From sequence record MN850590.1: DNA of 64,000 bases; one strand, written 5' to 3'. This document shows, piece by piece, positions 74 to 57,156 of this stretch (positions within the stretch are counted from its first letter, which is position 1; each line of letters opens with the position of its first letter). Below the pieces are notes generated by a model, which was given only the letters and a program-made list of their open reading frames with translations, ran no database searches and was not told where the DNA came from. This DNA comes from Escherichia phage moha. The position numbers and the translations under genes are program-made.

Positions 74-102
74 GTTTACTTCTCCTCTGGTTTTGATATT
101 AT
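74..102 (+). promoter_or_regulatory. early (sigma70-type) promoter: -35 GTTTAC, extended -10 TGaTATTAT
   Basis: GTTTAC 74-79, 17-nt spacer, TATTAT 97-102; flanked by 10-bp inverted repeat 81-90/114-123. Confidence 0.5.
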
Positions 103-128
103 AACCATATCAACCAGAGGAGAATAAT

Positions 129-653
129 ATGTTAGTTTACCGCGTAGAACGTAGTTTTTGTACTCAACGTGAATCATTACCCGGAATTGCTATCGAAGAC
201 GGTAAAGCCGTCAGAATTTGGGAAACCTCTTGGAATAAAGAACCTCGCTCGCCGTACGGTTGGTCGGGTACCGACAACTCTGAAGAAACATGGGAGTTCC
301 TTGATAAACACGGAATACTCTCAGGTAACTTCTACCATCACGGCGACAACTATAATGTCCCTAATCGTCCTACAGTAAATGAAGACAAACTCCTTGAACA
401 AAATATCTTAAGATACTATAGAATTGAGCACACATTTGAATTGAGTGAAGATTGGGCTCAAGGGTTCTATTTTGGATTTGAAAGTGTTGACGCGGTTTAT
501 ACATGGTTTGATGACCAGGTGGATGTTGAACTCTTGAAAGCTAAAGGATACTACATCGCGGTCTATGAAGCACCTGATTTCATACTCGGAAGTTGTCAAT
601 TAATGTTCAGACGTTCATTAGCAGAACAAGTTGATTTTATTTTGCTAAAATGA
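129..653 (+). CDS. hypothetical early protein (T4 motB/cef-region position)
   Basis: 174-aa ORF with GAGGAG RBS 8 nt upstream, preceded by early-type promoter; protein-like composition; synteny upstream of gene 39. Confidence 0.55.
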   Translation: MLVYRVERSFCTQRESLPGIAIEDGKAVRIWETSWNKEPRSPYGWSGTDNSEETWEFLDKHGILSGNFYHHGDNYNVPNRPTVNEDKLLEQNILRYYRIEHTFELSEDWAQGFYFGFESVDAVYTWFDDQVDVELLKAKGYYIAVYEAPDFILGSCQLMFRRSLAEQVDFILLK

Positions 654-682
654 TGTACAACAACTATGGTCTATGATACTAT
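653..682 (+). promoter_or_regulatory. early promoter: -35 ATGTAC, -10 TGaTACTAT
   Basis: -10 hexamer 677-682 centred in palindrome GGTCTAT/ATAGACC (668-687). Confidence 0.45.
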
Positions 683-710
683 AGACCTATCAAAACAAGA
701 GGAGAATATT

Positions 711-4979: not shown

Positions 4980-5071
4980 ATCCTGAATAGCCTGAGGCAC
5001 TATTACACATAAGATGATAGATTATACGGTCTTTAGTAATAGTGCCCTAGGAATCTACTGAAGAGAATATT

Positions 5072-5272
5072 ATGAGAACATATAACGTGGACTTGGAACT
5101 TTTTGATAAAGCAGTGCTCCGGGAATTCCGGCTTATCCAAAGATTTTTTGATATCGAATCAGCAGAGTCCTTTAAAGAACGCTTTAAAGAAATTCGATAT
5201 AAAATACAAACCGATACAGCTACTAAAGAAGAACTTCTTGAAGTAGCAGAAATTTTTAAACGTAACTTGTGA
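5072..5272 (+). CDS. rIIA.1: rIIA.1-like small protein
   Basis: 66 aa ORF directly upstream of rIIA, same size and position as T4 rIIA.1. Confidence 0.6.
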   Translation: MRTYNVDLELFDKAVLREFRLIQRFFDIESAESFKERFKEIRYKIQTDTATKEELLEVAEIFKRNL

Positions 5273-29084: not shown

Positions 29085-29477
29085 ATGGAAATCGGAAAAT
29101 CTTATATCATTAACCCTTTGTTTAAAGACGACTTTGTTCAAGAAGCACCACACAATAACGCTAAGATGTTAAAATTGATTGAACTCCACGGGCCTAGTTT
29201 TGTTGTAAACGGAATGGAACCTGATTATGATAGCGATACGCTAAACGTAGTAAGTGTAACTATGGAAGATGGTACTGTATGTTCTGCTGGTGGTGAAATT
29301 GAAACTTATTTTGAGATTTATCATGATGAGTTCAAATACTTTACTGAGGTAGATTTAGTAAAGCCTCAACCTACTAACGAAGGTGTAACTTTAGGTGTAA
29401 CAAAAATCCATTGTATCGTAGATGAAACTAACGTCGACGAAATCATCAAACTTTTGCAAAAAACTTTTAAAAAGTAG
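29085..29477 (+). CDS. hypothetical protein (frd.3-position)
   Basis: 130 aa ORF with GAGGAA RBS and early promoter. Confidence 0.55.
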   Translation: MEIGKSYIINPLFKDDFVQEAPHNNAKMLKLIELHGPSFVVNGMEPDYDSDTLNVVSVTMEDGTVCSAGGEIETYFEIYHDEFKYFTEVDLVKPQPTNEGVTLGVTKIHCIVDETNVDEIIKLLQKTFKK

Positions 29478-29540
29478 TTTATAACAAGATAGGGCTACTA
29501 TAACATAGCCCTATCAAATAAAAGTGAAGAGGAGAATAAA

Positions 29541-38329: not shown

Positions 38330-38544
38330 CTAAAGAACAGCATGAATACATTAAAGGGCTTATCTATGAATCTGAAATGGCGGCTATGATTTATGGACGC
38401 CAGATTCAACGATTAGAATCTTTGCCTCCGACTAATGACCGCTTGTTAGTTCAGTCTCGTGCTAATCTGAAAAATGAATATCAGAATAAGTGGGCAGTAG
38501 CGACTAAAGCTCTTCATGAGTATATTGAATCTTTAGTAAAATAG
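38320..38544 (+). CDS. hypothetical protein (pseT.1-position)
   Basis: 74 aa ORF. Confidence 0.5.
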   Translation: MPMTKEQHEYIKGLIYESEMAAMIYGRQIQRLESLPPTNDRLLVQSRANLKNEYQNKWAVATKALHEYIESLVK

Positions 38545-38573
38545 TTTACAAACTCTCGGGAGCAGAGTATAAT
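38544..38573 (+). promoter_or_regulatory. early promoter: -35 GTTTAC, -10 TATAAT
   Basis: GTTTAC 38544-38549, TATAAT 38568-38573; palindrome GGAGCA/TGCTCC 38559-38578; near-copy of promoter at 10061. Confidence 0.5.
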
Positions 38574-38601
38574 GCTCCTATGGATAATTGAGGAAATCTA
38601 A

Positions 38602-40668: not shown

Positions 40669-40691
40669 TGGTTTACAACGCGGTGGAGTTG
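40662..40691 (+). promoter_or_regulatory. early promoter: -35 GTTTAC, -10 TGaTATGAT
   Basis: GTTTAC 40662-40667, TATGAT 40686-40691; imperfect palindrome 40673-40701. Confidence 0.45.
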
Positions 40692-40729
40692 TGATATGAT
40701 TAACTCTACCGACAAATGAGGAAATCGAA

Positions 40730-43555: not shown

Positions 43556-43584
43556 GTTTACTTTGGTACAGGTTATGTTATTAT
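43556..43584 (+). promoter_or_regulatory. early promoter: -35 GTTTAC, -10 TGtTATTAT
   Basis: GTTTAC 43556-43561, TATTAT 43579-43584; 9-bp palindrome GGTACAGGT/ACCTGTACC 43565-43595. Confidence 0.5.
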
Positions 43585-43625
43585 AGACCTGTACCAACAA
43601 ACAACTTAAACATCTGGAGAATAAA

Positions 43626-43991: not shown

Positions 43992-44026
43992 ATTAATTGG
44001 GAGCTTCGGCTCCCATTGAGGAAATT

Positions 44027-57109: not shown

Positions 57110-57126
57110 AATTACTCCTTTTCTAT

Positions 57127-57134
57127 TATTTATA
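57127..57134 (-). promoter_or_regulatory. late promoter (TATAAATA on - strand) for gene 51 and downstream hub genes
   Basis: Reverse complement of tatttata; overlaps the + strand late promoter by 4 bp. Confidence 0.5.
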
Positions 57135-57138
57135 AATA
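57131..57138 (+). promoter_or_regulatory. late promoter (TATAAATA) for gene 26
   Basis: Part of palindrome TATTTATAAATA 57127-57138. Confidence 0.5.
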
Positions 57139-57156
57139 CACAATAAAGGAGTTAAC

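Follow-up and report, generated by a model that had tools for sequence, protein, structure and literature searches.

The region upstream of motB.2 in Escherichia phage moha raises the question of how translation of an early gene could be made to depend on the promoter at which its message was started. The DNA analysed here, referred to as the window, is a 64,000-nucleotide stretch of the genome of this T4-type phage, a member of the genus Mosigvirus that is 97–99% identical to phages MM02, JK42 and JS09. Early transcription runs along its + strand, on which all the features of the locus lie. The motB.2 homologue, which is the gene proposed to be regulated, occupies positions 129–653 and encodes a protein of 174 aa with 34% identity to MotB.2 of T4. 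The protein belongs to PHROG 1106, a family of unknown function, and neither a Pfam match, nor a solved relative, nor any similarity to its MotB-like neighbour was found for it. The MotB-like gene ends upstream with a TAA stop codon at 67–69 (the end of the coding sequence in the JS09 record, L001 2569, equals window position 69), and this is where read-through RNA would enter the motB.2 unit. In T4, Bp7, PEi20 and PM2 the gene and its promoter cassette are found after dexA, and in the window phage they follow the MotB-like gene.

An inverted repeat around an early promoter

Motif and consensus scans place an early promoter of the T4 type directly downstream of the stop codon. Its −35 element, GTTTAC, is found at 74–79 (the hexamer TTTACT at 75–80), and is followed, after a spacer of 16 nt counted from the hexamer TTTACT, by an extended −10 at 94–102, which comprises TG at 94–95, A96 and TATTAT at 97–102. 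This combination, TTTACT-16-TATTAT at 75–102, is the only promoter-like match in positions 1–2100 that has the extended −10 TG in the consensus scan, and the more general pattern GTTTAC-N(15–19)-TATNAT occurs five times in the window against 0.48 expected, a ten-fold enrichment. Transcription is predicted to start at about position 109, 7 nt past the −10, giving the leader AUCAACCAGAGGAGAAUAAUAUG. The late-promoter motif TATAAATA is absent from the motB.2 element, whose promoter is of the early type (GTTTAC / TGn / TATTAT). The orthologous site of phage RB69 has been independently listed as early promoter Pe:7443, annotated ‘1 bp del’, in a model that leaves 21 nt between its end and the ATG (Nolan et al. 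2006, PMC1524935 supplement). The well-studied early promoter P8.1 of T4 is probably the orthologue of the motB.2 promoter, as judged by map position only.

The spacer of this promoter and the ribosome-binding site of motB.2 form the two arms of a perfect 13-bp inverted repeat, TTCTCCTCTGGTT at 80–92 and AACCAGAGGAGAA at 112–124. The first-pass annotation had described reverse-complementary arms of 10 bp, TCTCCTCTGG at 81–90 and CCAGAGGAGA at 114–123, bracketing the −10 and with the Shine-Dalgarno (SD) sequence in the right arm. Both arms were located, the true ones being longer, and the rest of this description is borne out by the sequence: TATTAT (97–102) lies between 80–92 and 112–124, GAGGAG (117–122) is wholly within the 3′ arm, and the gene begins with ATG at 129. 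The left arm is thus an anti-SD placed in the promoter spacer, present only in RNA that was begun upstream, and the right arm, defined by the repeat, the fold and the SD pairing, holds both GAGGAG and the GGAG of 119–122. No other perfect 13-bp short-range inverted repeat was found in the 64-kb window, and the mean in shuffled sequences was 0.14.

In the minimum-energy fold of RNA 76–128, an outer stem of 12 bp (80–91 with 113–124) is separated by a 2-nt bulge from an inner stem of 6 bp, in which 94–99, part of the extended −10, pair with 107–112 (AUAUCA) around a 7-nt loop. The hairpin contains 18 bp in total, with a ΔG of −23.9 kcal/mol and a z-score of −7.2, and none of 200 shuffled sequences folded as well. 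Among 61 gene starts in the window, the SD region of motB.2 is the most strongly paired, with a pairing probability of 0.99. A search of positions 1–900 against Rfam gave no significant match, the best E-values being about 0.5 and the scores far under the gathering scores. The motB.2 hairpin element is a real feature and, as described below, a conserved one.

Accessibility of the ribosome site in long and short transcripts

The cost of opening the ribosome site was computed over positions −16 to +3 relative to the start codon. It had been claimed in the first-pass annotation that a transcript started at this promoter lacks the left arm and leaves the site free, while read-through transcripts would sequester it, and the calculation agrees with both parts of this claim. 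The predicted start at about 109 is 3′ of 80–92, and opening the motB.2 site requires 19.2 kcal/mol in read-through RNA (fold z −7.2) versus 5.0 kcal/mol in RNA from the predicted +1, an RNA that is no more structured than expected (z +0.4). The same comparison for motB.2 of six other phages gives 15–21 kcal/mol in the long RNA versus 3–10 kcal/mol in the short one. In an unbiased scan of the 16 units of early promoter and gene in the window, motB.2 had a ΔΔG of 14.3 kcal/mol and the runner-up 4.0 kcal/mol, the difference between long and short RNA being small or nil for the 15 other genes. Hairpins that straddle the −10 and leave the SD outside the stem were seen at five further early promoters (29476–29540, 38544–38601, 40671–40729, 43556–43625 and 654–710), and they impose no read-through penalty on the ribosome site.

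Early promoters matching the consensus precede motB.1 and motB in the JS09 record, beyond the window's edge, and no convincing terminator was found in that record between these promoters and the hairpin; read-through RNA is therefore expected. In T4, the middle promoters PdexA.2 and Pdda.1 have been mapped upstream and would read into motB.2. Judging by what is generally known of ribosome footprints, a ribosome halted at the stop codon at 67–69 would contact only the base of the stem, so that translation of the upstream gene should not open the hairpin.

Together with the promoter motifs, the repeat and its fold, and the conservation and covariation described below, this energy difference points to a promoter-dependent translational switch, a reading that we consider likely, in which a PeSL-like early cassette with an anti-SD in its spacer ties MotB.2 to its own early promoter. 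RNA from the promoters before motB.1 and motB, and from the middle promoters further up, would carry both arms and would fold co-transcriptionally into the 18-bp hairpin, burying the motB.2 SD. From such RNA motB.2 would be poorly translated, and its GGAG would be shielded from the nuclease RegB. RNA begun at the embedded promoter, for which we infer a 5′ end at about 109, would have no left arm and a free SD, allowing immediate translation, and, once translated, this short RNA would be open to RegB cleavage. The net effect would be to confine MotB.2 synthesis to the first minutes of infection and to insulate it from upstream transcription. It weighs against this reading that most of the other promoter-straddling hairpins of the window exclude the SD, so that hairpins at these promoters may have another purpose too.

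The possible involvement of RegB was missed by the first-pass annotation, as was the match to PeSL cassettes. The sequence GGAGAAUAAUA (119–129) is a predicted RegB site: it consists of GGAG and then a 7-mer rich in A and free of C, and so fits the RegB/S1 rule, the known target being GGAG (or GGAU) followed by an A-rich heptamer without C (Durand et al. 2006, PMC1702504). Only two GGAU sites are efficiently cut by RegB in vivo, and the SD of T4 motB.2 is one of them (PMC1702504); it must therefore be exposed on an abundant early RNA. The sites of T4 motB.2, regB and modB are cut by RegB and that of nrdC.8 is cut moderately, and the SD of T4 denV has been reported to be RegB-resistant (PMC1702504). 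RegB is inhibited by secondary structure, but in vivo cleavage persists at some structured sites, possibly while the RNA is nascent, and modB RNA, though structured in vitro, is cut in vivo (PMC1702504); the hairpin may thus be no absolute block. The regB gene is itself expressed from an early promoter that is shut off at 2–3 min, and its own SD is cut by RegB, according to a source whose searched passages make no mention of a hairpin.

Conservation of the element and its recurrence at other genes

Relatives of the locus were gathered by tblastn against phage genomes and by a DNA-pattern scan. The same design recurs before motB.2 in five genera, Mosigvirus, Dhakavirus, Tequatrovirus (T4), Kanagawavirus and Mosugukvirus, with stems that differ in sequence in a compensating manner, and it is still kept where the MotB.2 proteins have diverged to about 33% identity. 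Within Mosigvirus, the arms of the window phage (TTCTCCTCTGGTT / AACCAGAGGAGAA, core TCTGGTT/AACCAGA) are replaced in ESCO47 by TTCTCCTCTAG / CTAGAGGAGAA, with the core TCTAG/CTAGA. The Dhakavirus members Bp7 and LHE83 have the arms TTCTCCTCATG / CATGAGGAGAA, the core being TCATG/CATGA in Bp7, and the Tequatrovirus members T4, PST, AV122, Ozark and CT01 have a 17-bp stem, TCCTCGGT.AGTTGTGGT / ACCATAGCTACTGAGGA, with three G-U pairs. Compact hairpins are found in PEi20 and Kosakonia phage 305 (Kanagawavirus) and in PM2 (Mosugukvirus). In these the left arm starts right after the −10, so that the predicted transcription start is still inside the left arm. G-U pairs are present in the stems of both T4 and PM2, which argues that the structure under selection is that of the sense-strand RNA and not of the DNA. 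At the distant motB.2 loci of Serratia phage 92A1 and of the Pseudotevenvirus phages leN and EC-W1 the design is not clearly kept, and a protein-based search for the locus in IMG/VR returned only three near-identical loci.

Base pairing was counted over eight cassettes anchored at the first base after GTTTAC, taken as the outermost pair; we chose this anchoring ourselves, and the rows mix orthologous and paralogous cassettes, so that the count leans towards structure. With this reading, 92% of the cells are paired and both sides have changed in 7 of the 13 pairs. None of 500 shuffles matched any of the five measures, and slid controls were 50–59% paired.

The locus also has the layout of a PeSL cassette, with a TAA stop (67–69), TTTACT (75–80), a 16-nt spacer, TATTAT (97–102), the SD (117–122) and the ATG (129). 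The spacer is 16 and not 17 nt as in the PST/T4-type PeSL promoter consensus TTTACW N17 TAYWAT (Comeau et al. 2014), and the stem at 80–124, which encloses the −10, corresponds to the subclass described as ‘overlapping the −10’ (Arbiol et al. 2010). A second early-promoter cassette precedes cef at 654–710 (+ strand), with TGTACA-17-TACTAT, a hairpin at 668–687 and the SD AGAGGAGAA; its RB69 orthologue is Pe:6863. This cef cassette is the recombination partner of the motB.2 cassette. In phage F2, a single hybrid cassette consists of the first cassette up to TTCTCCTCT and of the cef cassette from the −10 onward, the crossover lying between the left arm and the −10, and motB.2 is absent at that position. 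The hybrid retains a 9-bp anti-SD/SD pairing for cef. As in PeSL cassettes, the element is thus associated with junctions of insertion, deletion or replacement, as seen in the F2 hybrid without motB.2 and in the location of the cassette, which varies by genus. Between the two cassettes of the window, the left arm and its flank, TTCTCCTCTGGTTTTGATA (80–98), are complementary at 18 of 19 positions to the cef leader and SD (688–706), about 600 nt downstream, which is probably a relic of the cassettes' common ancestry.

An intrinsic terminator at the motB.2 element was considered and rejected, since the stem is followed by TAATATGTTAG, which has no T-run, and the terminator scan calls none. For RB69, the TransTerm list that has been published contains no entry at either the motB or the cef junction. 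Elsewhere in the window, a canonical UUCG-tetraloop terminator, AAGGGCTTCGGCCCTT followed by TTTTGC, is found at 1954–1969, just upstream of the topoisomerase gene 39, and similar UUCG hairpins occur near position 44000. A strong hairpin at 4991–5051, with 16-bp arms that are 88% complementary, a ΔG of about −30 kcal/mol for the region and no T-run, lies between a 366-aa ORF and the rIIA.1-like gene at 5072.

A short-word BLAST of positions 62–134 against the window matched parts of promoters and SDs only, and further copies of the module, that of regB for one, are found outside the 64-kb window. Scanning IMG/VR with the pattern GTTTAC-TTCTCCTC plus a paired SD retrieved the module before three further genes, among them that of the RegB endoribonuclease (Pfam REGB_T4, E 4e-69). 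The spacer/SD hairpin of regB is found in five genera (represented by Mosigvirus, T4, S16, QL01 and Mineola), with differing stems, and the module is also present upstream of nrdC.8 and denV of T4. When the 162 annotated starts of T4 were ranked by SD pairing, regB came first, gene 49 second and nrdC.8 third. The known T4 controls e and soc ranked 33 and 112, respectively, so that this survey, which places gene 49 at rank 2, has specificity but lacks sensitivity. For 6 of the 26 T4 early-promoter-proximal genes, namely regB, nrdC.8, modB, e.8, denV and motB.2, the computed read-through penalty was 7 kcal/mol or more. The modB site (T4 13130) has another geometry, in which the pairing partner of the SD and start codon (GGAGGCTATCATGA) is the −10 region itself, TGATATGATAGCTTC. 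A deposited T4 derivative, ‘Mutant Escherichia phage T4 clone T4_7t1’ in GenBank (T4_7t1, OL964745), carries a 2,054-bp deletion (junction 152/153 = T4 64843/62788), the right end of which is inside the regB promoter spacer, so placed that the −35 is lost and most of the anti-SD arm is kept. If the switch model is right, regB of this clone would be reached by read-through RNA only and would be translationally silent.

We propose tentatively, as a broader reading that may well hold but about which we are somewhat doubtful, that these genes form a conserved and so far undescribed subclass of early cassettes with an anti-SD in the spacer. Its members, motB.2, regB, nrdC.8, denV and modB (about 6 of 26 T4 promoter-proximal early genes), would depend wholly on their own immediate-early RNA for translation and be silent on read-through or middle-mode RNA, and the same switch would set the exposure of GGAG to RegB. 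The regB or motB.2 hairpin may already have been described in older primary papers.

Alternative readings and relation to known systems

The stem-loop might serve mainly the fate of the RNA, by shielding GGAG from RegB on read-through RNA and perhaps by leaving a protective 3′ hairpin on the upstream message after processing. The SD, GGAGAAUAAUA, is indeed of the RegB/S1 type; in T4 the motB.2, regB and modB sites are RegB-cut and that of nrdC.8 moderately so, structure inhibits the enzyme (PMC1702504), and all four of these genes belong to the group of six T4 early genes whose read-through penalty is highest. The correlation is imperfect, however, as denV shares the hairpin design but has an SD reported to be RegB-resistant, and protection of a 3′ end needs no SD in the hairpin, yet what is conserved is that the SD forms part of the 3′ arm. 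As the main role of the element this appears unlikely to us, although it is compatible with the switch. A different possibility is that the element is a PeSL in the published sense, with a stem-loop that attenuates or terminates upstream transcription and a cassette that is mainly a recombination site for gene shuffling. Its anatomy matches in the upstream stop, the −35 and −10, the promoter-overlapping stem-loop, the SD and the ATG; the F2 cassette is a hybrid of the two that flank motB.2, with motB.2 absent; the location of motB.2 differs between genera; and one RB49 stem-loop lowered downstream reporter expression by as much as a strong terminator did (Arbiol et al. 2010). Against this, there is no T-run past the stem and the scan calls no terminator, although attenuation could operate without a T-run, and the RB69 TransTerm list is empty at the motB and cef junctions. 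Homologous recombination requires shared sequence and not a hairpin, and neither termination nor recombination explains why the SD forms the 3′ arm or why the arms covary, which makes this reading quite unlikely.

A function at the DNA level, as the operator of a dimeric DNA-binding protein over the promoter or as a cruciform, is suggested by the perfect palindromic arms that flank the −10 and by the MotB-type DNA-binding proteins encoded by neighbouring genes. This reading was rejected as very improbable, on the grounds that the arm sequences are not conserved and change in a compensating manner, that stem length and position vary by genus, and that the G-U pairs of T4 and PM2 would be mismatched both in DNA and in the opposite strand; the distance of 32 bp between the arm centres, moreover, is unusual for an operator. 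The complementarity could, finally, have arisen by chance between a pyrimidine-rich spacer and a purine-rich SD, TTCTCCTC and GAGGAGAA both being kinds of sequence that are common in AT-rich intergenic regions. The expectation of 0.14 perfect 13-bp short-range inverted repeats per window, the fold z-score of −7.2, the covariation in the part of the stem outside the SD and the position of the motB.2 site as an outlier among 16 comparable window units all speak against it, and with the comparative data strongly contrary as well, the probability of a chance origin is negligible. All four readings are weaker than the promoter-dependent switch, to which RNA stability or RegB shielding, being compatible with it, may add.

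Should the subclass exist, part of the ‘extra consensus’ in the spacers of T4 early promoters would reflect selection on RNA and not contacts with RNA polymerase. The promoter-dependent switch would explain how immediate-early genes are limited to the first minutes despite long read-through and middle-mode transcription units, and it offers a testable reason why some GGAG sites could be open to RegB in one transcript but concealed in another. The output of regB needs tight limiting, and this nuclease gene is among those that would be so restricted. Shuffled T4-like cassettes could also import translational insulation, so that an inserted gene would be expressed on its own terms anywhere. In annotation and engineering, edits in the spacer at such sites would be expected to alter downstream translation.

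The bypass of a hairpin-buried ribosome-binding site by an internal promoter is an established mechanism in T4, where it acts on e, soc, 49 and I-TevI among others (Uzan & Miller 2010); I-TevII, I-TevIII, segB, 25/26 and Aeh1 mobE are further late-gene cases, and the genes known to be controlled in this way ‘are all late genes’ (Edgell et al. 2010). The first-pass annotation had likened the motB.2 element to the control of e, soc and 49. The likeness holds for the regulatory logic, as the SD is predicted to be buried on the long RNA and to be freed by a promoter inside the hairpin, but not for the type of promoter. The hairpins of those genes enclose late promoters (TATAAATA, gp55) and their effect is to delay translation until late, whereas motB.2 has a sigma-70-type early promoter (−35, TGn, −10) with the anti-SD in its spacer, and the predicted effect is expression only from its own early promoter. 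An arrangement with late-promoter motifs is also present in the window at 57110–57156, where two divergent starts (− strand 57109, + strand 57157), probably those of genes 51 and 26, share the inverted repeat ACTCCTTT ... AAAGGAGT, so that the SD of each gene complements that of the other. Its loop contains TATAAATA in both orientations, and T4 genes 4 and 53 are laid out alike; sequestration of the ribosome-binding site has been mentioned for genes 25/26 (Edgell et al. 2010).

With PeSL cassettes (Arbiol et al. 2010; Comeau et al. 2014) the element shares an intergenic early promoter, an overlapping stem-loop, an SD and an ATG, as well as its occurrence at sites of gene insertion, deletion or movement among related phages. 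It differs in that the stem-loops of the published subclasses, although situated around the promoter, have not been described as containing the SD or as having a translational role, and in that the published PST and T4 stem-loops are just upstream of the promoter. The stem of motB.2, without a T-run, also differs from the proposed role of PeSL stem-loops in termination or attenuation. As in the RegB sites of T4 early mRNAs, the SD of the window phage is a GGAG followed by an A-rich, C-free heptamer; what would be new, as predicted from the sequence, is a site that is hidden or exposed according to the promoter of origin. The element is best seen as a variation on late-gene hairpin control and on PeSL cassettes, both of them known, and involves no new principle. 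The insertion sequences IS10 and IS50 reportedly show fold-back inhibition of read-through RNA, a sigma-70 promoter being placed inside an inverted repeat, so that transcripts from outside, which have both arms, are said to sequester the ribosome-binding site and thereby shield the mobile unit. These are bacterial insertion sequences with no sequence relationship to the motB.2 element, and the analogy is one of logic only, but if the subclass is real, the mobile promoter-gene cassettes of T4-like phages would bring their own translational insulator, as IS10 does.
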